A stretch of 64,000 nt of DNA, taken from assembly GCA_947627595.1 (NCBI GenBank), contig CANQWQ010000004.1:4341-68340 (forward strand). Direction: 5' to 3'. A program made the translations under genes and the position numbers. Below, piece after piece: positions 10,404-57,671 of this stretch. Under the pieces are notes generated by a model. It was not told the origin of the DNA. It made no database searches and saw only the letters and a program-made list of their open reading frames with translations. The DNA is from an uncultured Clostridia bacterium. Lineage in GTDB: Bacteria; Bacillota; Clostridia; TANB77; CAG-508. The stretch's first letter is position 1; each line of letters begins with the position of its first letter.

Positions 10404-13400
10404 TCATTTGTAGAATTTCTTTCTTCTTACAAATTCAACTGTTACATAAGTAACACCTAAAACTATTATCACAGCTGGAATAGCTATTAATAATACGTTT
10501 GTAACTTGCTCTGCTTTCTCATTTGCCTTTCTTTGAGTTTCTGAAATACCAGTTGGTGGAGAGAAAGTTACATATTCAGAGAAGTCTGTATCACTTTCAG
10601 GTCTAGCAAGTTCTATTAAAGTCTTTGGTAATACTCTTGATGGATCTGGATCATTGATTGCAATTGGCTCTTTAGTTGTATTTCCAATAAATCCATCTGC
10701 AGCAAGGTCATCTTTTACATATGCCTTTCTACCAACAGTATTTGAAACTTTAATAATCTCTGCGATATTATCTAATACAACACCATTTATATCAACTTCT
10801 GAAGTTAATATCTTAGAAGCTTCTAATCTGATGAAGTAGAATTCATTCATAACAGTATTTTCATAACTACTGTCAAGCGGATTTCCAAGTGTTCTTATAC
10901 TTGCGTCTCCAACTGTTCCACTACCATCATAATCATATCCTACAGATGCCTCAGAAATTGTTGTATTAAATTTATTTCTATCAAATGGCTCTAAGAATTT
11001 ATAGAAGTATGGGTTGATATTAGCATCTTCAATGTTAAATGCTAAGTTATTATTTGTATTTTCAGTTCTACTTACATAGTTCTTTTCACCATCTGTAATA
11101 TTTTGTACAGTTGGGTCAATTCCTCTTAATAAGCCTTTTTCTGCGATTTCATCAATACTATATGTTTGGTAAGTAACTTGATTATTTTCGTTAAAGTTTT
11201 CTTCTGGCTTAAATACTAAGTCATTATCAACATAGTCAATGTATTGATTTACTCTTGTTTTAACAATTGACTCTCTATTTGCACCAGCTGTCTTTGTATC
11301 ATTGTAGTACATATCACCTACATAGTAACCAGCTGTATAGTTGCTTTGAGCATCATGTCTAATATTTGTATAAGTATATGCTTTCTTAACTGAGTTTGAA
11401 CCAACTCCGTTTTGTCCAGCATAATTGTAAATTGCGTTTCCACCTACAGAGCTTAATCCAGCTGTAAGTGTAGCTGTTGCTGTTCCGTCACCACCTATTT
11501 GACCAACTCTATTATTGTCTGTCAATAAGTAATGTAAGTAGTTTCTACTATAATCATAATTTCTTGTTTGTGTATTTATAATATCTGTTTTTGTTACACC
11601 ACTTGATGAAGTACTTGTTCCAGTACTTGGTGGAACAAATTGTACATGTAAGTCTGTCTCTGATCCAAGATCTCCTGGAGTTCCTTCAATTTTCTTCTCT
11701 AACCAAGTTGAAATGTGGTCAATATCACTATTATTAGCAATAGCAGTTTGGAATTTAATTGTAATTATCATACCTTGAAGAAGATCATCATCAACGTTTA
11801 CATATCTGAAACCTTGGTTTGTTCCAAATCTATTTAATACCTGAACTTGTTCAAGTCCTTTAGATTTAACAAGGTCTGGAACTGCTCTATGGATGATTTT
11901 GTCTCCTCCATCTTCATAGATAATCTTGAAGAAGATATCTATTAATGTGTTTCCATCAGAAGTTATTGCTCTAACTTCTGTAATATCATTCATAAGTTGA
12001 AGTTTTGTTATTGGTCTTTCAATTAAACCAAAGTTAACGTCTCTTACTGAATAATATAATGGGTCTGTTGTTGTACCATCAAGTGTTTTGGTTGATGCAT
12101 TACCATAATTTCCAAAATACTCGATTTGCATATTAAATGCTTTTGTATCAGCGAACATTGATGTATGTTCTGCTAAAATTTTTGCTTCATCTATATTAGT
12201 TAAAGTTCTTCTACTGTCATTTTCTTTTTCTGTTGTAGATATTCCAGTATCATAAGCTTTTAAAACTGTATCCATTGGGTATGTCATTGTTGTTGAATAT
12301 TCGTTAACTTCAAGTCTTCTAATCTCATTATCTTTTGCAACTGAAACTATATTTGAACCTAATGTAGTTTGGAAGCTTGAGCTAAATGGATTACTGTTTC
12401 CTGAAATATTTGTGAATGCTGTTGCTTCAATTATTTCAGCTTCTTGAGTTGGATCTCCTGGATCAGTATATTTTGTAGACTTAAAGTCTTGTCCAGAATA
12501 TCTAATTGTTGTACCATCACTGGTTACAAGGAAGTCTGCCTCATCACCATAAACGAATCTTACAACATAGATACCTGCATGAAGTCTATATCTATCATCT
12601 ACAGAGTTTTGTCCTGATGTGCCTCTTAAGCTACTATCAACACAGTCTCCAAAGTAATATCTACCATCTGAACCAGTTCTATACCACATTCCAGTATCAA
12701 CTAAATATTCTTTTTCAACATTTCCACCGCTCTTTCTTTGAACAACTTCGTAAAGTTTAACTAAAACATTTGCAGCTGGTGTATCTTTTGTTGTATCTGA
12801 TGACATTTTACCATCACCAACTTTTTGACCATCATCACTAGCTGTTTTTGCAAGTTCTTCGAAAACTATACCAGAAATATTTCTGTATGATTTCTTTTGA
12901 TATTCTGGTGGTGGGTTATTTTCTGGTGGTGTATCTCCTGGAGGTGTTCCAGGTGGTACTGGTGTTTCTGGTGGTGGATTATCTGGATAATCTCTTAATA
13001 CAATCTTTAATGCTGTCTCAAATGTATCATCCTCAAATTTTGATGTATCGAAATCATCACCAGTTGTTTCTACGTTTGCTGGGTTTGAGTTTACATCAAT
13101 TAAACCAGCTGGTGTAGTACCATCTTCTTTATAGATTGAGTATGCTCCAACTTCTGCAACATTGACTTTTGCATCAATTGCATTATCTGAAGTCATATCA
13201 ACATAAATGTATCCTTGTTTATCAGTTTCTGTATGTTTTAATACTTTATATTTTGAATAAATATCTAAAGTATCATTTGGCGCTAATTTCTTATTTGATA
13301 AATCACTTCCTGTAAGGAATTGTACATTACATTTAGATGGACAGTTTGCTGAATTTTCAAAGCTTGAGTTTGTACTTGAATTTAATGTTGCTCCAGTTAC

Positions 13401-16780: not shown

Positions 16781-19700
16781 CTATCTGTAGAATCTCTTGG
16801 TTGTTTTAATTTTTATAGCAATTGCAATTATTGCTGTAACCATTATTATAATTACGAGTGTCATCGTAATATATTCAACTGTATGACCAGTTGCAACTGT
16901 GATTATAAGTGTTGATTCACTATAATCATCTTCTGATTTCATTTTATTATTTTCGATAGAATCTCTATCAAATAATCCTAAAGCATTAGTTGTTTCAGCG
17001 ATTTCTGCTCCATTTGTTAAGATTGCTGATTCACCATCTTCTAAGCTTCTTCTTAACATTAATGTGAATTCTTTTGTTTCACCTGGAGCGATTTCTTGAT
17101 CTACTAAACCAGTATAATATAATCCATTATCAGAACCTACATACCAGCCTTCGCTCTTATTTAAAACAACTTGTACTCCACTTGGTAAGTAATCAACTAC
17201 TTTGTTTACATACCCTGGAACATCACCCTCATTTGTTATTCTAAATTTATAAGTAATATTTACGACACTTGATTTATAATATTTTGAACGAATTTCTAAT
17301 CTTCCGTTTTGCATATCTCTGTAATCGTAATATTTTGTTCCTTCATCATTTTTAACTCTGATTTGTGAAATCATTTTTTCTAATTTTAAGTCAAAGTTTG
17401 TTTTATCAACAATACCAATATCTATCGCCATAAAACCACTATCAGTTATTTCTAAAACATCTGTAACACCTACTGTTTGTGCTACTCCATTTATTGTAAC
17501 TGTTTTAGAAATTGCATCTGAGTCTTCAACTGTTGTTGCATTTTGTGATTGATATTTTGTTACTTTATATTTGCTTGCGTTATAATCAAAAACTACTATA
17601 TATTTTCCGATTGCAACGTTAGTAAATGTATATTTACCTTGACTATTTGTTGATGTTGTAGCAACTAAACTTGAAGTATCAATTCCACCATATTTATTTG
17701 CTTTATATAATGAAACTACAACTGCTTCTTTTAATTGTTCTTCATCTTGTCTAATTCCATCTTGATTTTCATCTACCCAAGCTAAACCTGTGATATTGTA
17801 ACCTGTTGGAACTTGTTCTACTACGTTGTTAGGTGTTACTGTTGGTTCTGGAGTAGTAGTTGGTGTTTGAGGTTGAGGAGTACTTGGTGTAGTTGGTTGA
17901 TTATTGTTAGATTGATTGTTATTAGTTTGATTGTTATTTTGATTATTTGTTTCTGGTTGAGAATATTGTGTAATGTTGCTATTCTCTATTTTGTAAGAAA
18001 TTATATTTGTTTTAATAGTCTCTTCTGAATTTTCTTTAATGTCCATTGAAAATTCTATAGTTTTTTGATCTCTAGCATATAATCTCTTATTAACTTTTGC
18101 TGTTATTGTTAAGTTTTGTTCTTTTCCTTCATCAACCTGTAAATTAGATTTTATTTTATCTTCTTCAATTATATTATTTGAACTTTCTTTTACATCATCT
18201 AATGATAAATCTGTTATTTCCAAACCACTTGGAATATTAGCAATTGCTTGTATTAAACCAGAATCATTAAATCCAATATTTTTTGCATTTAATGTGAATT
18301 TAATTACATCTCCATTATCAACATATTCTTTATCAGTATCTGTTAAAAGTTTATATTCTACCTTTGTTTCACTTTGATAAATCTTTTTGCTATAATCATT
18401 TGAATAATTTACTTCGTCATCAATTTCTGCAAAAGATGTAATTGTCATCTTTGTACTATAAACATTGTAATCCATACTATTATTTTTAATATAGTATGTT
18501 ATACCTATATGTTCTCCTGCTTCTATTTTTGGAATATTAAATACAACAATTGTTGTTCCATCTCCGACTTTATTTACAGTATATTCAACATTATCTGGAT
18601 TACAAATAATCATTTTATCAAATAATGTTACACTGTCTGGTAAAGTTAATGTATATTTTACATTTTCTAAATCATGATCTGTAATATTTTTTATATATGA
18701 ATATAAACCAATTGAATCATTAGTTATATTCTTTTCTTCATCTACAAGCTCTGTTCCGACTTTCTTAATAAGAACTTCTAGATTAGCTTCTTTTACTTCA
18801 TTTTTAAATGTTGTAACTTCTTTTTCAGCATTACTATCATTTGAAACTATTATTTTACCATAAACTTCAGGTGTATCTATTTCACTTAAGTCTTTAACTA
18901 TAGCTTGGAATTCAATTGTCTTTGATGTTCCAGGTGCTAAACTATCTATTGTAAATTCAACATACTCTTTTTCATCTTGAGTATATTCTTTCATTTGTTT
19001 AACTTGATCAACACCTTGGAAATATGTTTCTCCTGTACTTATATATTCCCAGTCATATAGATTAGCATTTTCTGCTTTTCCTTTAACTAAGATATTAGTT
19101 AATGTATTATTAGAAGTGTTTTTAACAACTACAGTATATTTTATAACTTGTCTTTCATATACACTGTCAGTTTCGCCTAAAGTTTTTCCACCTTGGCTAA
19201 CTTGAGTTCCGACTGTTACATCATTTAACTCTTCTTTGTGTTCTTCTTCAATATCATCCATATCAACTTCTTTTATTTCAGTGTACATTCCAACTGAACA
19301 TTGATTTGAATAATTTTGAGTATCTATTTTATAGTAAACTGTATAGTTTGTATATCCTATAGCATTGTATCCAACACTTTCTGGAACTGTTAAATTGTAA
19401 TCAAAAGAAATTCTTTCACCTTTAGCTAAAGTTTTTTCTCTTACTACTATTTTAAATGATTTGAAACTACTTAGGTTTGTTGTATCTTGTGTCCAAGTAT
19501 CTGAACTTGCATTTGCATTTCCATCTTCTGAATAGTAAACATCTCCTACAACTCCGGAAGTTGCTAATGCACTTTGTAAAGTTGTATTAAAGTTTGTTCC
19601 TAAGTCATTTCCATTTCCGTCCTTATTACCTACAAAAGGAATTCTACCTATAATTACAACATCTTCTAATGTTGCTTCATAATTATTAACTATTGCGCCA

Positions 19701-21715: not shown

Positions 21716-21742
21716 GGGACGGTCCTCTTCAAGGACCGTCCC
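21716..21742 (-). terminator. GC-rich rho-independent terminator overlapping the stop codon of the 2557-aa gene, built from a 25-bp direct repeat
   Basis: gggacggtcc tcttcaa ggaccgtccc is a 10-bp G+C stem followed by ttgtcttgttttttt on the minus strand. The unit acaagacaagggacggtcctcttca recurs at 21671-21696. Confidence 0.7.
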
Positions 21743-31270: not shown

Positions 31271-32206
31271 TTATTCATGATAATTGTATTTTGAATATTT
31301 TTTATAGAATATGAAACCTAAAACAGCCATAGCTATAACTGGTATTATTATTAATTTATAACCTGTCTTTGGTAAGTTTGATGGTGAAACTGTATCATCA
31401 TTACTTCCTTGTTGTTGGCCACCCTGTTGTCCTCCTTGTTGACCACCTTGTTGTGTATCACCACCACTAGGTTTTTGAGTTTGTTCATTTTTAGCTTCGT
31501 TCTTAGCTGTATTTTTACTTTCGTTCTTTACTTCATTTTTAGTTTCATTTTTAACTAAATTTTGTGTTTCATTTTTTACTTCGTTTTTTGTAGTTTCATT
31601 ATCATCTTTATCAACTGTAGAACCAGATTTATTAATTATAACTTTAATTCCTTTATTAGTTAATTCTTGGCTTTCAAGAGGTTCATCTGAGAATACTTCA
31701 AATAATTTATAAACTATAGCTGAAGGATATTCTCCAGTAGCTGCATTACTTTTAACTTTAAAGTTTAATTTAAATAAACTTGTTCCACTTGTTAATGGTT
31801 TATTTAAGTTAATTACAACTTTGTAATCACCTTTCTCTGAAACTGTTTCTCTAGTAAATATAATTCCTGTATCTGTGCTAAGAGATAGGTCATCTGAATC
31901 ATAAACTGTTAATAGGTTATCTTCATTTATTTTAACTTTTCCATCACTGTCTCTAACTATACTTTCAACTGTTAGAGGTTCTAAGATGCTTTCATTTATA
32001 TCTATATAACCTTCAATAGCAGCAATTCCGCCTGTTGAACTTAGTTTATCTAGTTTAACTGTAATTGAAAATTCATCTCCTGGACGAATTATATCATTTT
32101 GAGTTTCAACATTAAAACCAAGTTCTCCGCTAATTGTGGCATATACACTAGTTGTAAATAAAATTAGCATTACAACTATATATAAAACAACCTGTCTTTT
32201 TTTCAT
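31271..32206 (-). CDS. LPXTG-anchored cohesin-domain-like surface protein (311 aa), N/K/E-rich and QQGG repeat linker
   Basis: Signal peptide MKKRQVVLYIVVMLILFTTSVYA. Cohesin-like beta-sandwich segment (IRPGDEFSITVKLDKLSSTGGIAAIEGYIDIN...), KNEVKNETKN and GGQQGGQQGGQQ low-complexity linker, then LPKTG + TM + KKYSKYNYHE. Confidence 0.7.
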   Translation of the reverse strand: MKKRQVVLYIVVMLILFTTSVYATISGELGFNVETQNDIIRPGDEFSITVKLDKLSSTGGIAAIEGYIDINESILEPLTVESIVRDSDGKVKINEDNLLTVYDSDDLSLSTDTGIIFTRETVSEKGDYKVVINLNKPLTSGTSLFKLNFKVKSNAATGEYPSAIVYKLFEVFSDEPLESQELTNKGIKVIINKSGSTVDKDDNETTKNEVKNETQNLVKNETKNEVKNESKNTAKNEAKNEQTQKPSGGDTQQGGQQGGQQGGQQQGSNDDTVSPSNLPKTGYKLIIIPVIAMAVLGFIFYKKYSKYNYHE

Positions 32207-42575: not shown

Positions 42576-42694
42576 AATTACCATAAAACTTTAAAAAAAT
42601 TATTGCAATCTGTGATAATTTATTAAACTTTTAGCCTAAATTTGCTAAAGTTCAGTTTTTATTTTATTACACTTTGTCATAAAATGCAAGAAAA

Positions 42695-42724
42695 AATCGA
42701 AACGTTTTTACAAACGTTCCGATT
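42695..42724 (-). terminator. Rho-independent terminator after giant surface gene 3
   Basis: aatcgaaacgttt ttac aaacgttccgatt is a 13-bp stem with one mismatch, followed on the minus strand by ttttttcttg. Confidence 0.6.
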
Positions 42725-42739
42725 TTTTATTATATTGTT

Positions 42740-45700: not shown

Positions 45701-48700
45701 TAATAATTCGGCATTATTAGGATCTTCTAAGTCAATTGCACTATTAAATTTATATTTTAAAGCTTTTCCATTTACAACTACTAAAGCTTCAGTTAAGTCT
45801 TTTTCTAACGCTACGTCAGTTCCTTCACGTTCAACTAAACCTAAATTGATACTTAAGCAATAATTGTAAATAGCTTCAAATTTATATCTTATTGTAAATA
45901 TGTCAGTAATTGTTTTATCCCAACCTCTTAAGTGCCAAGCTGTTGTATCATAAGCTGGGTCTTCTGTGTAGAATGGGAATGTTAGGTTTGCATTTGATGT
46001 TGCTGCTTTAATCTTATATTGATCTAAGATTTCTTTATTCTCATCAAGTGTTTCTAATGTTGATATCTTTCTAGAGTTATCACTATTAAAGAATGAAACT
46101 GAATCTACAGATGAATAATTTAATTCATCAACACCAGCTGCTTTACCAACTGTATTTCCACTATCATCTATTGGTGAAACACCTTGAACATCAGCAAATT
46201 TATTATTGAATGATGTTCTTTCACCTAAGTCATCTACTGCCATAGAATCTAGTAAGAATTTGTCTCTTTCAGATGTTGAACTATCTATAATAGTTGACCA
46301 TCTATTTGAAACATCACTATACATATTGTTTGTAGCATTTGCTCCGACATATGATTGTGCCTGACCTCCTGCTGTAGCTAAGAATTCTGTTGGTTCAAAA
46401 GTTTGACCATCATATTCAAATTCTACATCATATGTTACAACATAGCTATCACCATATATAGCTTTTTCATCTTCTGTTAATGCTGGTACAGAAACTGCAC
46501 CGAAACTCCAGTTACCATTGTCATCTGTGTATGTATAGTTCTCTAAGTGTGTTGTTAAATCGTTTTCATCATAAACATATACACCATTAATTCTTTGAAC
46601 AACTTGACCACTGCTATCAACTAAAGCTCTATAAATTGTAACTTTAACGTTTTCAATTCCTGGTTCGCCTTCGTCGATTTTTCCGTTTTCTAAAGCATCA
46701 ACATGTTTATCAGATGTACGGTTTGTATCATCCCAAACTTTACCACCAAGCTTCATTGTAACGATTAATTCTTCGTTATATCTCCACTCGTTTGTAACGT
46801 CTACGACTGCTGTTTGACCGTCTACTAATTCATTATTATCTGAAGATGACTCTGTACTTACTAAGTCCCAACCAACTGGCATGTCTGCTGAAGGTTCTTC
46901 AACAGCAAATGTTGGGGCTTTATCGCCGTTCCATTTAATATCTGATGATTCCCAAGTCCATCCACTTTCTTTAGTAATAACTACTTTTAATGTTAATGGT
47001 TTATTGTCTGTATAAGCAACTCCATTATAAATGAAGTTTCCTTTAATAGTTACTAAGAATGTGAAATCAACTGAAACATCATCTTCTGAAATTTTATCAT
47101 TTACAATTAAGTTTTTATTTACTCTAAGTTTTCCACTATGGTTTGTTATATAATGGTTTTCAGCATATACTGAAACAATTCCTGTTTTTCCATCTTCAGT
47201 ATCTTGTGCTTCTAATTGACCATCTTGTTTATCAAATGTAACTTCATATCCGCTATTATCAATCTCTTCGATATGATATGTTGGAGCTGAATCTTTCTTA
47301 GACCAAGTGTACCAGTTACTTCTCCAATATCCACCAGATGTAACTGTAGCAATTTCTTCTTGTACTGTTCCATCTGCAAGTGTAACAGCAACTTTAAATT
47401 TAAATTCTACTCCATCTATTTCGTTTCCTTTATCATCAAGTAAAACTTTGTGAATTTGAAGTCTACCTTTGTCATATCCATCAAATGTATTTTCTACAAT
47501 TACCCAGTTTTCACTGTTTTCTTCAACAGTACCAGTGATTGCTGGTTGTGTATTTGTTTGATATGCATTTCTGATGCTTACAAATTTAGCACCTTCAGGG
47601 AAATCTGCTGTAACCTCAGTTACAGTATATACTGGTTTTCCATCTGATTCATACCATTCAATATCATTTGATGTCCAAACTTCACCTGGTTTTAATTTAA
47701 TATCTTTAATTTCAAGTTTTCTATATTCTGTTCCGTTATATTTAAATTTACCTGTAACAGTTACTGTAAATGTAAATGTGTCATTATTAATTTCATCACT
47801 TAAAGATTGTTTTTCAACTGTGATTTTACCTTTAACAGGAACACCACTATCGGCATCATTTACAGCAATAATATGTGTAATGTCACCAGCTAAACTTCCT
47901 GTAATAGTTAAATCTCTTCCACTAGCATTTGTTAGTTCTTCAACTATTATAGATGTATCATTTCTAAGACTTACAGATTTAACTCCATCTGGGAAGACTC
48001 CTGTTACCTCTGTAATTTCATATTGTGGAATTGCAGCTCCAGCATCCCATTCAAAATATCCTGATACCCAGTCTTTTTCATCAGCTACAACTGGAACATT
48101 TTTCATTACAAATTCTTCACCTGGGTTATAAGTTGTAACTTTTGTAGCATCTTCTAAGTCATGATATCTAAATGGAGATGAGCTCCAAACTCTAACATTA
48201 AAGTAGAAAATTCTACCTTTAAGGTCTTTATTTAAAACTTCCTTAGTTATTTCAATATGACTACCATTTGGTTGAGCACCATAGTTGATAGCAACTACTC
48301 TTGCTGATTTTGTAGAGTTTAAAGTACCAGTTATTGTCTGGCTAGCATCTGTAACTACTTGTGTTTCATTTGAAATACTTACAAAACGTGAGCCAGCTGG
48401 TAAGTTAACCTCTGTAACTTCATATGTTGGTGCTGGACTACCCTCATCCCATGTAACAGTTCCTAATACCCATGGATTTCCATTACCTTCAACTTGAACG
48501 TTTTCAATTGTAAGTGTGTCTCCATTTGGAGAACCTGCTCCATAGTGTTTTCCAGCATAATCAAATTCACCTTTAATTTTTACATTAAAGTTAAATATTT
48601 GTCCTTTTAAATCTTCTGTAGTCTTTTTAGCTATTCTTAATGAGCCATCATGGAAATTTTCTGTTGGTTTGTTAATAGCTGTAATATAGTTATTATCAGT

Positions 48701-51700
48701 TCCTTCAGCTAATGTTCCATCTATTTTTGTTGAAGTAGAAGTTCTAGTTCTATTAGAAATACTTACAAATTCAACATTTGCTGGTATACTAATTTCTTCT
48801 ACAGTATATGTTGGTGCAGGGGCTCCTTCTTCCCATGTGATTAATTCAGAAACCCAATCTTCTCCACCACAGACTGCTTCTACATCATTAACTTTTCCAT
48901 CTAATACTAAAGTTGTATTTGTATATTGTGTATATCCTTTTGTTCCATCTGGATTTATCTTGTCATAATATCTAAATGTACCTGAAATTGTTACTTTAAA
49001 GTAGAATACATAATCGTCTAATACTTCATCTGTAGACTCTTTAATTATAACAATATGTGCATTCTTTCTAGCAGTACCTTTGTTAATACAAGTAATTACT
49101 GTTTGAGCATATCCTTCATAGTTTCCGTTAATAACACCGCTGATTGATTTAACACTAGTTTCTGTTCTGCTTCCATTTGAAATACTAACAAATTCTGAAC
49201 CAGCTGGTAAATTAACCTCTTCTACTGTATATCTAGGTGCGCTAACATTACTATCCCAATAGAATAATTCTGAATCCCAAGTTCTAGAAGCTCTATCGCC
49301 TGTTGGCGTTATTTGAACATCTAAAACAAATGGATTATCTACTGTATAAGTTTGTTTAGCCCCTCCGTTATATCCAAATGTACCTGTAACATTAACTTTA
49401 AATGAGAATGTTTTTCCATATAAGTCTTCTGTTTCAGTAAGTTTTATAATTTCTAATTTTCCGTGTAATACTTTTTCTTCATCGTTTGTAATTACAACTT
49501 TAGTCTTTCTTCCTTCTTGTAATCTACTAGAAAGATTATTTATTCTAGAAGATGTAAGTTGATCTGTTATACTTACAAACTCTGTTCCGTCAGCCATGTA
49601 TGATTCATATATTGTATATCTTGGAGCAGTTTGATTATTTCTCCAAGTAATTATATCTGAACTCCAATGCCATCCGTTTCCAGAATCTAAAGTTATATCA
49701 ATTTCTTTAGATCCGCTAACATATTCGCTTCCATATTTAAATTCACCTGTTATAGTAAGATGAGCTTTAAATACTTCACCTGGTTGAGGAGTGGTACTAC
49801 TTACCATCCTCTTATCAACCTCTATTTGAGACCATCTAGATGATCTGTTCCATGCTACAGTTGGTGGAATTTCATCTATATGTCTTGTATCTCCATCTCT
49901 TAGACTTGATACTTCAGCATCTCTTCTTACCATTGAATCTAATTGATAAAAAGCATCATTTGGAATAATTTCTTCTACATGATATTTTGGTGCTGAACCA
50001 TACCATCTAAATAAACCTGATGTCCATTCACCTTCACCTGTAACTGATCCATTTATTATCAATGGATTTCTAGAAGTATATGTTGTAATTGGTCCATTAT
50101 TATAACTAAATGTACCTGTTACACTTACTCTAAAGTTATAAGTTGTGCTCCACATATCATTAGTAGGATTTATCAGTCTCTTTTGAATCCTAATTAGACC
50201 AACATCTGGTCCTACATAGTTTTCAAAAGTTACTGTATTTCCATTAATAACACTTTCTCGAAGTGTTCCACTAAATGGACCGTTATTATTGTAACCTCCA
50301 ATTTCTTCTACATAATAGTCTGGTGCAGATTCATTTTCGCCCCATACTATTAAGTGTGATAAATCACGTCCAAATCCATTGTGAGTTCTAACTGTTAAAT
50401 GTTGAAATTCTTTTAGTCCTTCTCCATCATGTCTATCTATATAAATCTTGAATATATATGTGTCATCTATAAGTGTTTGAGAACCATCAAAGTCTCCAAT
50501 TACTCTTTTTTCAACTAATATTTTTGCTCTATGTAACTTATAACGTGTAACACATTCAGCTTCTTCGTACCATCTAGCTCCAATTAAAGCATGTGCTAAT
50601 GTCTGTGAATCGTGTGGAACTACAGATGTACATTCTATCCATGTTTCACCATCACTAAATACGCTTCTAGTACGTCCTTCACCATCTGTGTAAGTATCAA
50701 AGTTTTCATATCCATTTACTGTCCAGTTTACTTCATTATAAATACCATCATAAATGTCTAGCTCTGCTCCGGCATTCATATATTCAAATTCAAATTTGAA
50801 TTCTTTTATTGTAGTAAAGTCTGGAATATATTTAATTTCAATATAGAAAACTTCATTTGGATCTGGATAAGGATATGTTGAATTAGGATCTCTAGTTTGA
50901 TCTGCTAAGAACAAGAAATTCCAATCGGTTCCAAACTCAAGTTCTCCAACGTTTGTGTCTAATTTAACACCTGTAATTTTAGCAAAATCTACTTCTGCTC
51001 TACCATCTATTTTAACTGATCTTTTAACATAATTTAATGAATAAGGTCCAATTAAATAAGTATTTTTTCTATAGTTAAATGTTGGTGTTACTTCGTCTGC
51101 TTCATTTATAACACCATTTTGATCAGCATCTTCGTTAAATCCTGGATGATAATCTATAACTGGGGCTGTAACATCACCTTCACTATGTGTTCCGTCATCT
51201 TCATCAAATGAGAAGTGTTGTTTCTCATATTGCATTTGATATACATCACTAATTCCAGTTATTTCTTTCATATATGCTTCAAAAGCATCTGCTTCTTTTG
51301 ATAAATTGTTTGGTGCAGATGGTGAAACAGTTTGATGACTTGTTCCCATATCTGTAGTCCACCAAGCAATTTGGATATAGTTATAATCGTTTTCAATATA
51401 TGCATAATATAATGTTCCATTTATATCAACGACTGTATCATAATCCATTAAGTATACATCCCAACCTTCTGCTGGAACATTAGCTTCAACAAGATTTCCA
51501 TCAGAATAATAGTAGAAATCATAAGCTTTATATCCTTGTAATTGAACAACTACTCCTGATTTTGGATCTGTTCTTTCAAAACGACCTGTATATGCTGCTC
51601 CGCCATGTTCATCAGCAAGAATATAGATTATATTTCCATCACTATCTCTAGCTGAATCTACGTAGAAAGCACCATCTGGTGTATTAACTACATATTTATG

Positions 51701-52324
51701 ATGAATAGTATATGCTGTTTCACCAGTTGATAATTGGAATGAATAATTGTCATAATCAATTGTTCCTTCATATACTTTTGGTTGACCATTTTCATATATT
51801 ACTTCTGCTGAAGTTTGATTTCCTTGACCTATATCTAACTCTTTTTTCATTTCAGCTATAATATAAGCTTCTTTTGGTGTAGCAATATGTTGCTCAACTA
51901 TTTGATAATAACCATAAGTTCTATGAGTATATGTGGCTTTATCAAAATCTCTAGCAGCACCACTATATGAACTATATATGCTATGTTGTTCTAGAACTGA
52001 TCCAGGGCCATAGCCTAAATCTTGCCAATTACCCATGTTATAGTCAAAACTTCCTTGACTATGAGAACCTGTTAAATGAACTCTATTCTCGCCATTTAAA
52101 GGTGTTCCATGTTGACAACATAAAATATCATAATAATTAATTAAGTCATTATATGTTAAATATGTTGGGTTAGGTCTATCTGTTTGTTTTAATGAAGAAA
52201 TCTGTGGTGATACAAATAGAGCCTGTGATCTGATAGTTAAAAGTGTTCCAAATACGGCTAGCATTATAAAGAATAATACTAATAATTTAATATTGATTTT
52301 TCTAACTTTATTTTTGTTATCCAT
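42740..52324 (-). CDS. Giant fibrillar surface adhesin (about 3194 aa from ATG 52324): signal/anchor, N-terminal globular region, about 11 tandem isopeptide-type (Cna-B/SpaA-like) Ig domains, SdrD-B-like domains, C-terminal SPPTG sorting signal
   Basis: RBS AAAGGAGG lies inside the last codons (KGGV) of the upstream gene, 8 nt before ATG 52322-52324; the track starts at an in-frame GTG 52333. Repeats carry K...YTV(E/T)E(V/I)xxPxGxxFVSI...N. C-terminus EVITLSPPTGLSPTESRTLQLVLVITISITIIAVSIVIIKKKVLNKN. Confidence 0.85.
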   Translation of the reverse strand: MDNKNKVRKINIKLLVLFFIMLAVFGTLLTIRSQALFVSPQISSLKQTDRPNPTYLTYNDLINYYDILCCQHGTPLNGENRVHLTGSHSQGSFDYNMGNWQDLGYGPGSVLEQHSIYSSYSGAARDFDKATYTHRTYGYYQIVEQHIATPKEAYIIAEMKKELDIGQGNQTSAEVIYENGQPKVYEGTIDYDNYSFQLSTGETAYTIHHKYVVNTPDGAFYVDSARDSDGNIIYILADEHGGAAYTGRFERTDPKSGVVVQLQGYKAYDFYYYSDGNLVEANVPAEGWDVYLMDYDTVVDINGTLYYAYIENDYNYIQIAWWTTDMGTSHQTVSPSAPNNLSKEADAFEAYMKEITGISDVYQMQYEKQHFSFDEDDGTHSEGDVTAPVIDYHPGFNEDADQNGVINEADEVTPTFNYRKNTYLIGPYSLNYVKRSVKIDGRAEVDFAKITGVKLDTNVGELEFGTDWNFLFLADQTRDPNSTYPYPDPNEVFYIEIKYIPDFTTIKEFKFEFEYMNAGAELDIYDGIYNEVNWTVNGYENFDTYTDGEGRTRSVFSDGETWIECTSVVPHDSQTLAHALIGARWYEEAECVTRYKLHRAKILVEKRVIGDFDGSQTLIDDTYIFKIYIDRHDGEGLKEFQHLTVRTHNGFGRDLSHLIVWGENESAPDYYVEEIGGYNNNGPFSGTLRESVINGNTVTFENYVGPDVGLIRIQKRLINPTNDMWSTTYNFRVSVTGTFSYNNGPITTYTSRNPLIINGSVTGEGEWTSGLFRWYGSAPKYHVEEIIPNDAFYQLDSMVRRDAEVSSLRDGDTRHIDEIPPTVAWNRSSRWSQIEVDKRMVSSTTPQPGEVFKAHLTITGEFKYGSEYVSGSKEIDITLDSGNGWHWSSDIITWRNNQTAPRYTIYESYMADGTEFVSITDQLTSSRINNLSSRLQEGRKTKVVITNDEEKVLHGKLEIIKLTETEDLYGKTFSFKVNVTGTFGYNGGAKQTYTVDNPFVLDVQITPTGDRASRTWDSELFYWDSNVSAPRYTVEEVNLPAGSEFVSISNGSRTETSVKSISGVINGNYEGYAQTVITCINKGTARKNAHIVIIKESTDEVLDDYVFYFKVTISGTFRYYDKINPDGTKGYTQYTNTTLVLDGKVNDVEAVCGGEDWVSELITWEEGAPAPTYTVEEISIPANVEFVSISNRTRTSTSTKIDGTLAEGTDNNYITAINKPTENFHDGSLRIAKKTTEDLKGQIFNFNVKIKGEFDYAGKHYGAGSPNGDTLTIENVQVEGNGNPWVLGTVTWDEGSPAPTYEVTEVNLPAGSRFVSISNETQVVTDASQTITGTLNSTKSARVVAINYGAQPNGSHIEITKEVLNKDLKGRIFYFNVRVWSSSPFRYHDLEDATKVTTYNPGEEFVMKNVPVVADEKDWVSGYFEWDAGAAIPQYEITEVTGVFPDGVKSVSLRNDTSIIVEELTNASGRDLTITGSLAGDITHIIAVNDADSGVPVKGKITVEKQSLSDEINNDTFTFTVTVTGKFKYNGTEYRKLEIKDIKLKPGEVWTSNDIEWYESDGKPVYTVTEVTADFPEGAKFVSIRNAYQTNTQPAITGTVEENSENWVIVENTFDGYDKGRLQIHKVLLDDKGNEIDGVEFKFKVAVTLADGTVQEEIATVTSGGYWRSNWYTWSKKDSAPTYHIEEIDNSGYEVTFDKQDGQLEAQDTEDGKTGIVSVYAENHYITNHSGKLRVNKNLIVNDKISEDDVSVDFTFLVTIKGNFIYNGVAYTDNKPLTLKVVITKESGWTWESSDIKWNGDKAPTFAVEEPSADMPVGWDLVSTESSSDNNELVDGQTAVVDVTNEWRYNEELIVTMKLGGKVWDDTNRTSDKHVDALENGKIDEGEPGIENVKVTIYRALVDSSGQVVQRINGVYVYDENDLTTHLENYTYTDDNGNWSFGAVSVPALTEDEKAIYGDSYVVTYDVEFEYDGQTFEPTEFLATAGGQAQSYVGANATNNMYSDVSNRWSTIIDSSTSERDKFLLDSMAVDDLGERTSFNNKFADVQGVSPIDDSGNTVGKAAGVDELNYSSVDSVSFFNSDNSRKISTLETLDENKEILDQYKIKAATSNANLTFPFYTEDPAYDTTAWHLRGWDKTITDIFTIRYKFEAIYNYCLSINLGLVEREGTDVALEKDLTEALVVVNGKALKYKFNSAIDLEDPNNAELLYKQLAVADAQIEYNLGLYSGDYYYRASVYDGSDAGSALSGYYTRTLGLPLDTSELEIYLKYTINVYNQSETYDVTIGEVADYYDSTFELVNATEKRYVQTLNGKDVDQVIEVASPSTVKYLNGSTETGSGTMAWTNAGEIDGSDGVKYSKLTSSSLNGHKLAVGEKASITVTFKIGKDSVGESGVLNAIKLGKKHNVAEITKFTSYYSDKSENRWSSPGQISGRVDEDSAPDNVNIADYNDKPYYEDDTDSAPIITIGISDEQRIISGIVWDDAQTQNVQYGQVVGNGLFNPDEGDKVIDGITTEIYESITVPETDDNGEKVYKEYQFAWPTNQPIPALGNKTIEELTGFKQATVTQNGEYSFYNIPAGNYKVRFVYGDKQIETGKTGSEEVYSGQDYKTTAYQVKFDNDKDNDGFADNEWHDITNSELNDLRVNDARDDEARRLYISAKSEMLTFDNSTVLATADNKAADHTELFGNYETAKLTDPVRGEGYYMYAETAKINLGVENVSKVKNSENIGGVDVGVVNGKATQNGKDVGTAQFIYHVKNVDCGIEERSQTKLTLDKQIKEIILKTSDDRVILDAVYDIEYTLKSDGTIASTVVLNEEKSTASDHIASLNRRGAIDQGYRYLIIDESILQGAQIEAIYQLTVFNMSETDRISEPLETLWANVNKVSTDTEKLQLVNDAMSKIATNLYTDSKGRVFNDGTGFKSVGYGTYFGSVYYLGSQGVGVRGDEKIVQTKVHQMIDYVDPDVEFTNQNNNTKDHNWENTDVEYLMNNHLLDPATIQILDSDGRVTGKTAATDTLGAGESYSIISDKLQRYQSENKNNLILNLNSGENATENSNSGFVKFLDPYMADSNVNRSTGTISLTVTRFYSSETDASDIDNLAELIKVENTAGRRDARNIPGNVNPYKLDETTGEPVGVYAAATQGKEKDASATEVITLSPPTGLSPTESRTLQLVLVITISITIIAVSIVIIKKKVLNKN
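46790..50540 (-). repeat. Tandem array of about 11 diverged 330-360 bp coding repeats (isopeptide-type Ig-like domains) inside gene 3
   Basis: Protein-level repeats, for example KTFSFKVNVTGTFGYNG...SAPRYTVEEVNLPAGSEFVSISN...VITCINKG and GQIFNFNVKIKGEFDYAG...PAPTYEVTEVNLPAGSRFVSISN...VVAINYG. Boundaries are approximate. Confidence 0.6.
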
Positions 52325-52325
52325 A

Positions 52326-55300
52326 TTAAACACCTCCTTTAACTATCATCTTGTTTTTGATTTTCAGAACCACAATTGTTACTGCAATTCCTACTAATAT
52401 AATTGTTGTTATAATTATTGAAATATTTATGAATATTTCACCAGTTTTTACTGAAATATATGTATCTGCTCTTGAGAAGTCATCTTCATTTTGTGATCTA
52501 TTATTTGGAACAGAGTCTAAATCAGATACACCGTAAATATTGTAATCTTCAACAACTTCAGCAGTATTTGAAACTGTTCCGAAATTGTCGTTTGTTAAGT
52601 TCTTTGAAAGAACCAATTTAAGTGTTTTTGTTTCACCTGGTTGAATTTCTGTATTTGCTAAGCTTGTTGTATATAACATTCCATCTGAACCTGTGAACCA
52701 GTCACTGTTCATTCCAGAATTAAATTCCATTCCTGCTGGAATATAATCAGCAATTTTCTTAGCATATCCTGCTACTTCACCTTCGTTTTTAATTGTTAAT
52801 TTATATTCAATATATACGCTAGCACCTTCTGCTTGTTTAGCAGCAATTTCAGTTTTTGTTAATTTACTATTATCATAATTATCTGTAACAGTATCTTTAG
52901 AAGTTTTTGTTGTTATTTTTGAAACTCCTAAATCTAAGCTTAAGTCAAATTTCATAGCATCTACTAAACCGATATCTATATTTGAAACACTACCGTCAGC
53001 TACAGTAACAACTCCTGTAACAGCGCCGTTTCTCATTTGACCATTTTCTTCAATCTTTGTTGTGATAACATCTGAATTTACGTTATTAGCAACATTTTCT
53101 TTTTGGTATATAGTAACTGTATAACGAACTGTATCATAATCAAATACTATAATATAGTTACCATTTCTAACTCCAGTGAAACTATACATACCTTCAGAAT
53201 TTGTAGTTGTTGTTTGTTTTATAACACCATTATCTGAATCAACTAATGTTGCTTTAATATTTTTCATTAATTGTTCATTATCTGATCTCATACCATCATT
53301 ATCTTTATCTAACCAAGCAGTACCTGTGATTTTATAAGTTTTACTTAATGATGTTGTTCCAGTAGTTGATGAACTAGCTTGACCTGTAGAATGTTCTCCT
53401 TGAGATGTAACTACATTTCCAGAAGCTTCTATAATATGTGTAATATCATTTGATTTTTCTTCAGCAATATTTCTTCCAGAAATTGTTGCATTATTTGTTA
53501 CTGAACGCTCGCCAAGTCCATTTAAGCTAGCAGCTGCAGCTGTAACATTAACTATTAATGAATCACCTGCTGGAATTGCAGCACCTACTATAACTTTTTC
53601 TTTATTAGCAACGTTAGTATCAATTAAAATTCCTTCTGAAATATATGATACTTTCTTAGCAACTAACCCTTCAGGAATATTATCAACAAACATAACGCTT
53701 TGAGCAGTAACTGCACCTTCGTTTTTGATTGTAAATTGATAATCAATTGTTTCTCCTTCTTTAACATATGAGTTAGTTGTAGATGTTGTTTGATTTATTA
53801 CTAATTCTGGTCTACCGATAACGAAACTTACATTTCCTGAAGTATATTCTGAAGTTCCATCAGCTTGAGCATTAGCAACCATAAATACTTCTGTTTTTGT
53901 AACACTTTCGTCAATATCGCCAACTTCTAATTTTAATTTTAAACTTATAATATCTTTTGGATTGATGTCTCCAATTTTCCAAGTAACAGTTCTTGTTGAT
54001 TCATTATATTCAGCTTGGCTAACATCATGAATTGTAGTATATGTTTCGTCATATCCTAAAACTGAACCTTCAACAAATTCAAAACAATTTGCAATTTTGA
54101 ATGTTGCAACAGTATTATGAATTACATCATCTGTTAAGTTTTGTACTCTGATGTATAATTTTGCATCATTTCCTTTAAACATGATTCCATCCATAACAGT
54201 GTTTTCAATATACACTCTCATTTCTGCATGATTTAATGTAACTGTTTTTTCTTCAGTTTGTAAAACAGTATCTAAATCTGTAGCAGTTATCAATGAGTAA
54301 ATTTTAATTTCATTTTCTTCGAAATCTTGAACAGATACTCTTAATTTAAATGTAACTGTTTCATCAACTTCAAGGAAAGCTAATTTATATTCCATTTGAT
54401 TATTGTTATTTGACCAAGTAGCGTCATCTCTATCACTACTACTTGAAACAAATTGTGTATTTAATGGAATTGGAGTTGTTACTAATAAGTTACGTGCTAC
54501 TGCTTTTCCAGTATTTTTAACTGTTGTTGTAATTTCTAATTCTTCAAATTCACTAGCAGTATCTTTATTAACTGATATATCATAATCAAATTGTGGTCCT
54601 TCACCTGTAACTAAACCAACTAAATCTGCTTTAGAAACATCTGTTAATGTAGCTATATCAGTATTATTTGTATAATATGTAACGAAAGTTCCATAAATTT
54701 CTGCGTTATGTTCTAGATTTTCTGGAATTTCATATTCATATGTAAATCTTAATTTTGTAGCTGAATTCATTCTATATTCTGGATCAACCGGAACAATTAA
54801 GAATGATTTAATATTATCAAATGAATCTACAGATTCTACCCAACCATTGTTTGGATCATCTAAATCTTTAGTAGCTTCACCATTTTCTGAGTAATAATAT
54901 CTAAATTTTGTTTCATTGAAATCTTCTGGAACAATTTCTGAAATCATTTTAGCTGTTAAAGTTGTTCCTAATTCATCTCCAGTTATAATATCTTTAACAC
55001 CTTCAAAAGGAACACGTCCTAAGATTACAATGTCTGAAATATTATTTTTCTCATTATTCATAATAGTTAATTCTGCTTTAGCAGTTTTTCTATCTGAATA
55101 AATTGGAAGTTCATCTATAACTTTACCTTGATTTACACTAGTAACTGTTCTAGTTTCATCTTCACTATAACCTGAAATACTATTAACACTAACTACTCCA
55201 CTTGGTGCAGAATATGAAACTGTAGCACTTGAGAATCCAACTTCTGCTCCTTGTTCATAGTAATTTGTAGCATCATCATTAACATAAGTTAATTCAAAGT

Positions 55301-57671
55301 TTCCTTCACTTGCTGGTGCAAATAAATCAACTTTGATATTTGCATTTAATACTATATTTGTACCATTTGAAACTATACCAGAGCTTAAGTCTTTTTGTTT
55401 TCCTGTAACTTGAACTCCGATATATTTTGAACCTTCATTTTCAAATTCATAAACTTCGCCTAATTCTAAGCCTTCGCCATAAACTATGCTTGAATCTGTA
55501 ACTTCGGCTGTTTCAACATATTCTGGTAATTTGATTTGGAAAAGTGAATTTCCATAAACATCTGAGCTAACATCTTGGTTGTTTAACTCAATTTTTAACT
55601 CTACATTATTATTCATTGCAAGAGTAGATAAACTATCTTGACCAATTTCTAAATCAGCTTTTGTTGAAGTATCATCTAATTTAATCTCTAAACTAGAATT
55701 TCCAACATCAACTAAATCATTTAAATATATATATTTAGCTTTTCCTACTGAATTAATTGTAATTCTATCAAAATCTTTATAAGTGTCTTTTCCATAGCTT
55801 ACATCTGTATAAGCTTTAACTACTGAGAAAATAAGGTTTCCGTCATTAACTGGTTTTGAAGTTTCTATTTGAATATTTTTAACTGTATTTTCAAATAATA
55901 CTTCGATTACTCCGTTTTCATTTACCTCAGTATCTTTATTAATAGTAAATATTAAATTTCCGTTCTCGTAAATATTTACTACACCGTCTTCACCAAGCAT
56001 TTCAGTGAAGTTATCTTTATTTAATTTTAAAGTTTTATAATATATATCATTTTGGTTAAATGGCTCGTTTGATTTTGAAACATACTGATTATCTCCATCA
56101 GTATAATATAAACTTTCTACTATATCTTTATAAGAAACGTTAAAGATTAATTTATTGTCAATTTCAATTTCGTATTTATTTTCTTCATTATTATAATTTA
56201 AATATGTATAACCTTTTGAAACTGAATTTGTAACTGATTCATTTGAAAATGTAACAATGCTTCCGACTTCATCTTTTAAATCAAAAGTCATTTCATTTTC
56301 TGATTTTAAAGATGTTTTTCCGAATTCGTTTTGTGTAGCACTAACTTTAGTTGTTACTTGTCTTTCACCAATTCCTACATTTTTATATGTATATGTGATT
56401 AAATATTTATCAACACCAGACTCACTGTAATACATTTCTTTTTCTGGAGCTGTTTCGTCAATCAAACTATCAGTTTCATTTTGTGTAGAAACTAATTCTG
56501 ATTGATTTTTAACATTTATAACAATTTTATTTTCGTTACTATCGTAGCTCCAATTATCAGCTTGAAAAGCAACCTCATCATGTTCTTTTCCAGTCGTAGC
56601 TTTTAAAGACTCAGCTACAACGTTAATTGTTTCTGGTCTTACTCCATCTATTTCTGGAACAGAAATTTCAACATTACTTTCTTTGATTGGCAATGAAATA
56701 TTATCTGTTGAATTATCTACCATAACTGATGTTTGAAGAATTATTCCATTAACATTATCTTGACTAAATCCAAGATATTTAGTTATCTCAGCAGATGTTT
56801 TTAATTCTCTTTCATCTTCCCAAGATAATTTTAAATCAACAGTTTTTGAAACTTGAATTTCTTCAGCATCATCTGTGATATATGTTCCAACGAATTTTAT
56901 TTTATTAGTTTTTGAAATCATTGATTTTTCAACAAATTTCTTGTAATTATAAGAAATTGGAAATTCAACTTTCATTTCTGAACCAGCATCTAATTGAATT
57001 AAATATAATGTGTTTGATTCAAAACTTTGAATTTCTTTATTTTCTTCTACAAGATCTTTTGTTTCAACAGTTTCTGTAACTTCTTCTGGTTCAGGTTGAA
57101 CTTCAGTTGGTTCTTCTGAAACAGGTTCGCTAACTGTAGGCTCATCAACTATAGGTTCGTCTTCAACAACAGGCTCTTCTACAGTTGGATTATCTTCTAC
57201 AAAAACTGATCCTCCGATTACTTCTTCACCGTCATCTTCAGAACTTCCGCCAACTGTAACTTCTTCAGATACATTAGCTTCGTTAACTGAAGCAGGTTCT
57301 TTTGTTTCTTCTGTTTGAACTTCGACTTTATCGTTTATAACGAAATTTAAGTCTTTTCCGTCGCCAAACAAAATTTTAGCATCCTTCAAATATCCACTGT
57401 TTTTGACTTTAACAGTTGCACCCATGATTAAATCTGAGTTCTTGATATCTGAACTAGCTGATTTAACTTTTTCAGAATCTGAGCTTGTTTTAAAATATGC
57501 GTCAAATTCTACGTTACTGCTTCCAGTATCACCTGCATCTTTGGAGTCATTTCCAAATATGCCAGAGAAAATTGTAGCAGCATAAGTTTTACCAACTAGT
57601 GCAAAATTAGAAAAAGTCATTGTGAATATTAAAAGAATTGCTATAACCTTCTTTTTCCAGTTCTTTAACAT
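52326..57671 (-). CDS. Large cell-surface protein (1781 aa), paralogue of the 16781..21352 product: signal peptide, acidic linker, DUF11 domains, SdrD-B-like domain, C-terminal VKTG + TM + KIKNK tail
   Basis: GGAGG RBS before ATG 57671. Contains EITTTVKNTGKAVARNLLVTTPIP, YQFTIKNEGAVTAQSVMFVDNIPEGL and ITGTAWLDKDNDGMRSDNEQLMKNIKATLV...GMYSFTGVRNGNYIIVFDY. C-terminus ...YISVKTGEIFINISIIITTIILVGIAVTIVVLKIKNKMIVKGGV. Confidence 0.85.
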   Translation of the reverse strand: MLKNWKKKVIAILLIFTMTFSNFALVGKTYAATIFSGIFGNDSKDAGDTGSSNVEFDAYFKTSSDSEKVKSASSDIKNSDLIMGATVKVKNSGYLKDAKILFGDGKDLNFVINDKVEVQTEETKEPASVNEANVSEEVTVGGSSEDDGEEVIGGSVFVEDNPTVEEPVVEDEPIVDEPTVSEPVSEEPTEVQPEPEEVTETVETKDLVEENKEIQSFESNTLYLIQLDAGSEMKVEFPISYNYKKFVEKSMISKTNKIKFVGTYITDDAEEIQVSKTVDLKLSWEDERELKTSAEITKYLGFSQDNVNGIILQTSVMVDNSTDNISLPIKESNVEISVPEIDGVRPETINVVAESLKATTGKEHDEVAFQADNWSYDSNENKIVINVKNQSELVSTQNETDSLIDETAPEKEMYYSESGVDKYLITYTYKNVGIGERQVTTKVSATQNEFGKTSLKSENEMTFDLKDEVGSIVTFSNESVTNSVSKGYTYLNYNNEENKYEIEIDNKLIFNVSYKDIVESLYYTDGDNQYVSKSNEPFNQNDIYYKTLKLNKDNFTEMLGEDGVVNIYENGNLIFTINKDTEVNENGVIEVLFENTVKNIQIETSKPVNDGNLIFSVVKAYTDVSYGKDTYKDFDRITINSVGKAKYIYLNDLVDVGNSSLEIKLDDTSTKADLEIGQDSLSTLAMNNNVELKIELNNQDVSSDVYGNSLFQIKLPEYVETAEVTDSSIVYGEGLELGEVYEFENEGSKYIGVQVTGKQKDLSSGIVSNGTNIVLNANIKVDLFAPASEGNFELTYVNDDATNYYEQGAEVGFSSATVSYSAPSGVVSVNSISGYSEDETRTVTSVNQGKVIDELPIYSDRKTAKAELTIMNNEKNNISDIVILGRVPFEGVKDIITGDELGTTLTAKMISEIVPEDFNETKFRYYYSENGEATKDLDDPNNGWVESVDSFDNIKSFLIVPVDPEYRMNSATKLRFTYEYEIPENLEHNAEIYGTFVTYYTNNTDIATLTDVSKADLVGLVTGEGPQFDYDISVNKDTASEFEELEITTTVKNTGKAVARNLLVTTPIPLNTQFVSSSSDRDDATWSNNNNQMEYKLAFLEVDETVTFKLRVSVQDFEENEIKIYSLITATDLDTVLQTEEKTVTLNHAEMRVYIENTVMDGIMFKGNDAKLYIRVQNLTDDVIHNTVATFKIANCFEFVEGSVLGYDETYTTIHDVSQAEYNESTRTVTWKIGDINPKDIISLKLKLEVGDIDESVTKTEVFMVANAQADGTSEYTSGNVSFVIGRPELVINQTTSTTNSYVKEGETIDYQFTIKNEGAVTAQSVMFVDNIPEGLVAKKVSYISEGILIDTNVANKEKVIVGAAIPAGDSLIVNVTAAAASLNGLGERSVTNNATISGRNIAEEKSNDITHIIEASGNVVTSQGEHSTGQASSSTTGTTSLSKTYKITGTAWLDKDNDGMRSDNEQLMKNIKATLVDSDNGVIKQTTTTNSEGMYSFTGVRNGNYIIVFDYDTVRYTVTIYQKENVANNVNSDVITTKIEENGQMRNGAVTGVVTVADGSVSNIDIGLVDAMKFDLSLDLGVSKITTKTSKDTVTDNYDNSKLTKTEIAAKQAEGASVYIEYKLTIKNEGEVAGYAKKIADYIPAGMEFNSGMNSDWFTGSDGMLYTTSLANTEIQPGETKTLKLVLSKNLTNDNFGTVSNTAEVVEDYNIYGVSDLDSVPNNRSQNEDDFSRADTYISVKTGEIFINISIIITTIILVGIAVTIVVLKIKNKMIVKGGV

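Follow-up and report, generated by a model that had tools for sequence, protein, structure and literature searches.

The 64,000-nucleotide (nt) stretch analysed here, called the window throughout, is part of contig CANQWQ010000004.1 from an uncultured Clostridia bacterium. It carries two gene pairs, A1-B1 and A2-B2, encoding very large surface proteins with two different kinds of C-terminal signal: both B proteins end in SPPTG, and the A proteins end in SVKTG or TVATG, motifs that contain no proline. The most plausible interpretation of the proline-free terminus of the A proteins is that it is a genuine sortase signal of its own type, borne by a C-terminal module that is mobile; in other organisms such termini are genetically linked to a sortase gene. 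On balance, we lean towards the view that the A and B termini are both sortase signals and that a sortase subfamily not yet described, with its gene outside the window in this genome, is dedicated to the A type.

Two paralogous gene pairs with different C-terminal signals

The window has a G+C content of approximately 30%, and nearly every gene lies on the minus strand. A1 and A2 are 26% identical over 1370 amino acids (aa), and B1 and B2 are 25% identical over their C-terminal ~1200 aa. The A1 and B1 genes overlap by 8 nt, and B2 starts 8 nt past the A2 stop. The pairs appear to be paralogous operons, each of which would encode two giant secreted fibrillar proteins with Ig-like stalks, and each of the four proteins would carry a three-part wall sorting signal composed of a T-G motif, a membrane helix and a basic tail. 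The genes and the parts of their signals are listed below.

52326-57671, minus strand: A1, 1781 aa, with a signal peptide, CLIPPER (DUF11) repeats, SdrD_B, a terminal Ig-like domain and the putative proline-free sorting signal (open reading frame (ORF) and Pfam)
52440-52454, minus strand: A1 motif S-V-K-T-G, aa 1740-1744, context ISVKTGE
52329-52439, minus strand: A1 membrane helix (24 hydrophobic aa, one residue past the motif) and basic tail, KIKNKMIVKGGV
42740-52333, minus strand: B1, a 3197-aa surface protein ending in an SPPTG signal (ORF; no Pfam match)
42854-42868, minus strand: B1 motif S-P-P-T-G, aa 3156-3160, context LSPPTG
42743-42853, minus strand: B1 7-aa polar spacer, 22-aa hydrophobic helix and KKKVLNKN
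16781-21352, minus strand: A2, 1523 aa, paralogue of A1
16886-16900, minus strand: A2 motif T-V-A-T-G, aa 1485-1489, context ITVATGH, aligned with SVKTG of A1
16784-16885, minus strand: A2 helix and KIKTTKRFYR
10404-16772, minus strand: B2, 2122 aa, paralogue of B1
10548-10562, minus strand: B2 motif S-P-P-T-G, aa 2071-2075, context FSPPTG
10407-10547, minus strand: B2 13-aa charged spacer, helix and EFVRRKKFYK

With a cohesin-domain protein ending in LPKTG, which is described in the last section, these genes account for the five termini listed in a preliminary description of the window (SPPTG twice, V(K/A)TG twice and LPKTG once), all of which are present as described. In each of the five proteins a hydrophobic segment of 17-24 residues is followed by a K/R-rich tail of 8-12 residues, and by inspection all five N-termini resemble signal peptides, being hydrophobic after a K/R-rich start. 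A six-frame scan for a hydrophobic stretch and a basic tail near a stop codon recovered these five genes; its other matches were only three unannotated plus-strand frames of 93-145 codons, two of them inside minus-strand genes. Compared with an LPXTG-type pentapeptide, the canonical LPKTG of the cohesin protein is complete, the B motif has P, T and G, and the A motif retains T-G only, without proline. The concern that a canonical motif upstream of V(K/A)TG had been overlooked can be set aside, as none is present upstream of SVKTG in A1 or TVATG in A2. None of the models for LPXTG, sortase-B signals and other C-terminal sorting domains in NCBIfam and Pfam matched the A or B proteins at E values up to 1.

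In Pfam, A1 matches DUF11 (PF01345) with 52.9 bits (cutoff 24.6) in three stretches, A2 reaches 23.6 bits, just under the cutoff, and SdrD_B scores 46.6 bits in both. The B proteins match no Pfam family, no NCBIfam family and no PDB sequence. We found 93 homologues of A1, mostly of 1600-1900 residues, and 27 of B1. An AlphaFold (AF2) model of the last 215 residues of A1 is a beta-sandwich (pLDDT 83.5) in which the last strand, FSRADTYISV, is followed by K-T and then by a long helix starting from the G (residues 178-213 of the piece). This order places the A1 motif exactly at the junction between domain and membrane.

The two classes of signal are homologous and kept apart

Motif counts were made on 132 non-redundant A-family termini and 70 B-family termini. 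All 132 A-family termini carry T and G; at position 2, 71 have V, 49 have I, 6 have A and 3 have P (V or I in 120/132), position 3 is K in 92, and the residue after G is E in 93, giving the general motif [STLGA]-[VI]-[KRSG]-T-G. Only 19 of the 1781 columns are invariant in a full-length alignment of 46 sequences with 24-74% identity to A1, and T1743 and G1744 are among these 19. In the B family, P-P and G are present in all 70 termini and T in 68 (the exceptions being PPNG and PPFG), and position 1 is T in 47 and S in 15, TPPTG being commoner than SPPTG. The T-G of A and the P-P of B are kept far beyond chance. A2 orthologues in other metagenome-assembled genomes (MAGs) end in ITVSTGR, and B2 orthologues end in TPPTGLMRNRR followed by a spacer of ~20 aa, the helix and KIKKRRYK. 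The restriction of the proline-free motif to the first gene of the module, already pointed out for the two modules of the window, holds in every module recovered from 62 related loci.

The tails are also conserved by class, A-type tails ending in KGGV and B-type tails reading IKKKVLK (tails at 52329-52364, 16784-16813 and 10407-10436). In the second module both proteins end in (K/R)(F/I/R)Y(K/R), which is RFYR in A2 and KFYK in B2.

An hhalign comparison of the last 150 aa of A and B gave a probability of 96% and an E value of 2e-9 with T-G aligned on T-G. A and B are homologous in their C-terminal modules, which indicates that both modules descend from one ancestral module, and the register of the alignment means that the "VK" of A occupies the place of the "PP" of B. 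With homologous termini and T-G in register, it is conceivable that one sortase, loose at positions 1-3, processes both proteins and that the motif difference affects the efficiency or the order of processing. The few A-family members with proline at position 2 (IPSTG, SPGTG and GPKTG) are in line with such an enzyme, as are two known sortases: the class B sortase Spy0129 of Streptococcus pyogenes takes both V and P at position 2, accepting (E/Q/V)(V/P)PTG (PMC3019223), and the substrates of Listeria SrtB include NAKTN and NPKSS (PMC8225981). However, across more than 60 genomes P-P is present in all B and in no A proteins, a split that an indifferent enzyme would not keep, and the dedicated sortase described in the next section is flanked only by proline-free substrates. 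We therefore regard a single loose sortase as unlikely, if worth keeping in view. The presence of proline-free A signals and P-P B signals in every genome examined, across a deep phylogeny, argues that the two are kept distinct by selection, which favours two enzymes, or at least two recognition modes.

Proline-free termini are linked to an unclassified sortase in other organisms

When 1.84 billion representative proteins were searched with a profile of the A terminus, 5385 matched at E values up to 0.001. Among the best 150 of these 5385, about two-thirds (~100) have a proline-free [STGA]-[VIL]-x-T-G at the terminus, with a helix after it and then a basic tail, for which (L)IKK[YF]V[LI] is frequent. 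Many of these belong to other CLIPPER families with termini of the form EDDIDDAPVxL[ST][IV]xTG, and a metagenome scan with these termini gave more than 442 relatives. Proline was found at position 2 or 3 in none of the 97 termini from fetched metagenome loci. The proline-free terminus is a widespread C-terminal module on CLIPPER (DUF11) proteins of uncultured bacteria, many of them represented by low-GC contigs.

In nine fetched loci, a proline-free CLIPPER protein ending in TISTG or TIATG is encoded 11-45 nt upstream of a sortase of ~230 aa; in the metagenome loci L128, L132, L136 and L143, for example, the CLIPPER protein ends in APVLLTISTG or TIATG and the sortase gene follows within this distance. 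The linked sortase has ~225-235 residues, an N-terminal membrane helix, the motifs GHNYRNG and TLSTC, and a conserved Arg. It passes the general models, scoring 89.6 bits with Pfam PF04203 and 50.7 with TIGR01076 (cutoff 39.35), which identifies it as a true sortase. Against the class-specific NCBIfam models it scores 53-57 for class C (cutoff 160), 45-54 for class E (160), 36-46 for class D (140-165) and 18-20 for class F (166), and it has no match to the class A and B models. The linked sortase is thus an unclassified subfamily that exceeds no class-specific NCBIfam cutoff. Its nearest solved structure is the class D sortase SrtC of Bacillus anthracis (PDB 2KW8; 55.8 bits, E 4e-14), with which it shares a short catalytic domain containing His, the cysteine of T-L-x-T-C and Arg. 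It differs from class D in its scores and in its substrates, which carry TISTG rather than LPxTA (the SrtC motif being LPNTA).

The family is large, with at least 3882 members in the protein collection. Four members chosen by sortase similarity alone (P0355, P0413, P0406 and P0372; 57-78% identity to the query) all have a proline-free CLIPPER gene 12-18 nt upstream, and in locus L154 a second proline-free CLIPPER protein is encoded downstream of the sortase. At the loci read, the sortase is flanked solely by proline-free substrates. The G+C content of the sortase loci, 26-28%, is close to that of the related A-module loci (28-30%) and of the window (~30%). A1 aligns with one sortase-linked CLIPPER protein over the last ~200 aa only, with 35% identity, an E value of 1e-27 and T-G in register.

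The neighbourhoods of these genes were also recorded. In L153-L157 the sortase-linked operon is preceded by a divergent gene for a D-Ala-D-Ala carboxypeptidase (Peptidase_S11) and a YcxB-family gene, and a Spo0A-like regulator follows the operon in three of the loci read. A different conserved neighbourhood is seen after other proline-free CLIPPER genes, where a gene for a conserved protein of ~310 aa follows (L070 15724-16653, L071 16838-17779, L072 15871-16800), with a GGDEF protein encoded next to it or one gene on. This 309-aa gene product was considered as a processing enzyme and rejected, being composed of a membrane helix and Ig-like repeats.

The candidate enzyme and the evidence against sorting

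Several results weigh against a dedicated sortase acting on the A terminus. No L-x-T-C is present in any ORF of at least 80 aa in the six frames of the 64-kb window, the 62 related genome loci show no sortase signature up to 10 kb away from the module, and none was found in the 7 contigs inspected. All of the sortase-linked substrates end in TISTG or TIATG and none in SVKTG or TVATG, A1 resembles them just in the terminal ~200 aa, and in the metagenome sample just ~5% of the proline-free termini have the sortase adjacent to them. Among known motifs, the one nearest to that of A, NVQTG of Clostridioides difficile, is not cleaved by SrtB in vitro (PMC4155245, PMC4371152), and some C. difficile proteins with SPSTG or SPQTG are unsorted in vivo (PMC5569036), so that a signal-like tail is neither a guarantee nor a proof of sorting. 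Finally, the closer homologues of A keep the cytoplasmic end KGGV and polar residues (Y/T) within the helix, which is unusual for a discarded segment.

These points bear on the possibility that the A terminus is uncleaved, that is, that A is a type I membrane protein held by its helix in which T-G is conserved structurally at the strand-helix junction. Such an anchor agrees with the lack of proline in the A motif, with the position of K-T in the AF2 model between the last strand and the helix starting at G, and with the conserved KGGV end and Y/T residues, which suggest a retained segment. In addition, Thr does not always seem to be needed, as three B-type proteins have it replaced with the rest of the signal kept: SPPNG in L009 and SPPFG in L042, which are clade loci, and IPPFG in a distant module (L069, 14667-19850). 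The PPNG and PPFG proteins are either sequencing errors or members of lineages in which cleavage has been lost or altered. On the other side, T and G are invariant while their neighbours vary, the A motif occupies the position of the canonical sortase motif in B, and in the nine fetched loci a sortase gene is tightly linked to this module. The unsorted C. difficile tails, the KGGV end with its polar helix and the Thr-less B proteins leave a plain membrane anchor for A with a rather small probability.

We return to the A terminus as a sorting signal and to the enzyme that would act on it. A sortase gene is absent from the window, as the preliminary description had noted: in addition to the L-x-T-C scan, tblastn with the CLIPPER-linked sortase gave no match, and in Pfam the other ORFs of the window correspond to YlmH, G5/3D, LemA, SpoIIE, WG repeats or leucine-rich repeats (LRR) with a dockerin, or have no match. 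The distinct processing enzyme that had been suggested for the proline-free motif gains indirect support from the nine loci in which the same module lies directly upstream of an unclassified sortase, but the cognate enzyme itself was found neither in the window nor in the 62 loci. It is plausible that a distinct enzyme acts on the A-type signal, and a concrete candidate family for it is now at hand.

In the mechanism that we propose, the B proteins would present [ST]PPTG, the type that sortase B of C. difficile cleaves, and the A proteins would present [ST]-[VI]-x-T-G at the junction of the last beta-strand and the membrane helix. The cognate enzyme of A would most likely be a sortase of the unclassified subfamily (GHNYRNG, TLSTC, Arg), which in other lineages is encoded right after its substrates and in this genome would be encoded outside the window, unlinked to them. 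The sortase would cut the T-G bond and join the protein to the wall, A and B being processed by different enzymes. We extend this only tentatively to the wider proposal that [ST]-[VI]-x-T-G is the motif of an unclassified sortase class dedicated to CLIPPER proteins of uncultured low-GC gut Clostridia, and that the A-B operons combine two orthogonal signals, leaving the two proteins to different enzymes, or to a set sequence of processing, at the cell surface.

Comparison with known sortase systems

The SrtB motif of C. difficile is (S/P)PxTG, located 17-45 residues from the C-terminus (PMC4155245), and the enzyme cleaves SPKTG, PPKTG, SPSTG and SPQTG but not NVQTG, LPETG or NPQTN (PMC4155245, PMC4371152). 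This selectivity is in line with two enzymes, or two recognition modes, for A and B. The SPPTG of B1 and B2 matches the motif cleaved by SrtB, as had been recognised at the outset (PMC4155245), with 37 residues after the motif G in B1 and 47 in B2, the latter slightly beyond the published range. Like CD0386, CD2831, CD3392 and other SrtB substrates, B1 and B2 combine the motif with a helix and a basic tail, on large adhesin-like Clostridium surface proteins. The B family differs from these substrates in being mostly TPPTG and in having a spacer of 7-20 residues between the G and the helix, and no SrtB-type gene was seen. The (S/P)PxTG motif does not describe the A proteins, in which proline stands at position 2 in just 3 of the 132 termini.

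The view that V(K/A)TG has no known parallel needs revision, since NVQTG of CbpA, (E/Q/V)(V/P)PTG of Spy0129 and NAKTN of Listeria SrtB also depart from L-P. The C. difficile protein CbpA (CD3145) is an Ig-like adhesin whose NVQTG, like the A motif, has V at position 2, no proline, and T-G followed by a helix and a basic tail. In contrast to this one protein in one species, the A-type motif is found in hundreds of proteins and adjoins its own sortase in related families. At the Spy0129 locus V is likewise tolerated at position 2, and two motifs are present on two proteins (VPPTG on Cpa and EVPTG on the major pilin). Position 3 is always proline in Spy0129 substrates and never in the A family; Spy0129 belongs to class B, to which the CLIPPER-linked sortase has no match; and pilus loci carry their own sortase, whereas the A-B module does not. 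None of these precedents combines the absence of proline at positions 2 and 3, a family-wide spread and a dedicated sortase.

The A proteins can also be compared with the fibrillar adhesins for which CLIPPER (formerly DUF11) is described, in the accessible part of a preprint, as the isopeptide-stabilised stalk domain (bioRxiv 10.1101/2025.04.25.650565). A1 has the layout of signal peptide, stalk and sorting domain given there, whereas the B proteins have no Pfam match at all; that part of the survey mentions neither a proline-free terminus nor a dedicated sortase. In the open-access literature, we found nothing on these proline-free motifs or on a sortase for DUF11 proteins.

A conserved A-B module at a single chromosomal site

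A scan of species-representative genomes with a 19-sequence A alignment gave 62 loci, all in uncultured gut MAGs (rabbit, deer, sheep, mouse, chicken and human) labelled Clostridia or Candidatus Scatovivens. A-B is a conserved two-gene module in more than 60 uncultured gut Clostridia MAGs, with B directly after A, at a short overlap or gap, wherever downstream sequence was recovered. Directly upstream of A1/B1, many genomes have a pair of the A2/B2 type; in the window the gene just upstream of A2 encodes a 2557-aa protein (21729-29402). This protein has a signal-like N-terminus, without a C-terminal anchor or a confident Pfam match.

At all loci with neighbours read (five contigs; L001-L004, L068 and L069), the module (42484-58715 in the window) follows mreBCD-pbp-minC and usually precedes spoIIE. 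Homologues merely 28-29% identical to A1 retain mreBCD-pbp-minC upstream, and one of them retains spoIIE downstream. The retention of a single chromosomal site down to this level of identity suggests that A-B is a core envelope structure of the clade and not a variable adhesin. Such positional stability is unusual for adhesin genes. Two small plus-strand ORFs, 58143-58298 (51 aa) and 58317-58676 (119 aa), lie between minC and A1, divergent from A1, and their sequence and position are kept in L004, L068 and L069. They were considered as an alternative processing enzyme and set aside, having no protease-like features.

The tight coupling of the two genes, by the 8-nt overlap in module 1 and the 8-nt gap in module 2, raises the question of whether A and B are joined covalently in a pilus-like structure, with the Thr of B linked to a lysine of A, A linked to the wall, and the order of assembly dictated by the two motifs. 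The signals differ from each other and are strictly conserved, they stand directly after the last strand as in pilins, and as a pair they resemble the VPPTG of S. pyogenes Cpa and the EVPTG of the major pilin; moreover, the lysines K486 and K1606 are nearly invariant in the 46-sequence A alignment. However, pilus sortases are normally adjacent to their substrates and no sortase adjoins the module in 62 genomes, a pilin motif or acceptor lysine is not established, the A and B proteins are 3-6 times larger than pilins, and a suspected thioester-type tip domain in B was not confirmed (see below). We consider covalent joining of this kind quite improbable. The polymerisation step that had been suggested for the V(K/A)TG motif has likewise found nothing in its support, with no sortase within 10 kb of the module in any of the 62 genomes, and polymerisation of A and B is unsupported.

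Thioester-domain (TED) adhesins have a TED fold with a Cys, a TQxxΦW motif and a Gln. The N-terminus of the B family (window 50525-52324) contains an invariant Cys in LCCQHG (C69), an invariant Q-x-A-W-W in YIQxAWW (Q318, W321 and W322) and a near-invariant SQTLA (Q574), which is the same order of motifs as in thioester adhesin domains. A search for such a domain in this region gave no Pfam match, no match to a PDB profile and no Foldseek match in the PDB at E <0.001 (model pLDDT 78). The thioester domain in B, suspected from the motif order, was not confirmed by these searches.

Implications for surface-proteome prediction

Gram-positive surface proteomes are predicted from sortase signals, and there is demand for sortases of new specificity as orthogonal tools for protein ligation. 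A proline-free signal would escape LPXTG-based predictors, and Pfam and NCBIfam flagged no anchor in A or B; because the anchor is missed in this way, hundreds to thousands of very large surface proteins from gut bacteria that are common but uncultured are probably annotated just as "DUF11" or "hypothetical". If the linked sortase recognises motifs of the T-I-S-T-G type, it would represent a new specificity class, and the orphan NVQTG of C. difficile CbpA might then be explained too. The practical value would lie in surface-proteome prediction and in sortase engineering.

Other features of the window

Single frameshifts split four housekeeping genes in the window: the gene for PBP2 (59342-61523, break at 60570-60640), a ComM/Mg-chelatase-like gene (7763-9284, break at 8540-8610), the gene for DprA (6881-7754, break at 7185-7300), and the gene for MreB, which is truncated at 63106 (break at 63060-63130). 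Each frameshift adjoins CACGG or ACCGG, and in L004 the PBP is encoded by one gene of 692 aa. The four frameshifts look like a systematic sequencing or assembly error (e.g., a methylated motif in long reads), not real pseudogenes.

The fifth sorting signal of the window belongs to a separate pair of adjoining genes.

31271-32206, minus strand: cohesin-domain protein, 311 aa (Pfam Cohesin, 32.5 bits)
31361-31375, minus strand: LPKTG motif of the cohesin protein, followed by a helix and KKYSKYNYHE
32390-35857, minus strand: LRR and dockerin protein, 1155 aa (Pfam LRR_4 and Dockerin_1)

Judged from its adjacency, the LRR and dockerin protein is likely the partner displayed on the anchored cohesin, and the two proteins are probably a small, ordinary wall-anchored cohesin-dockerin display pair.

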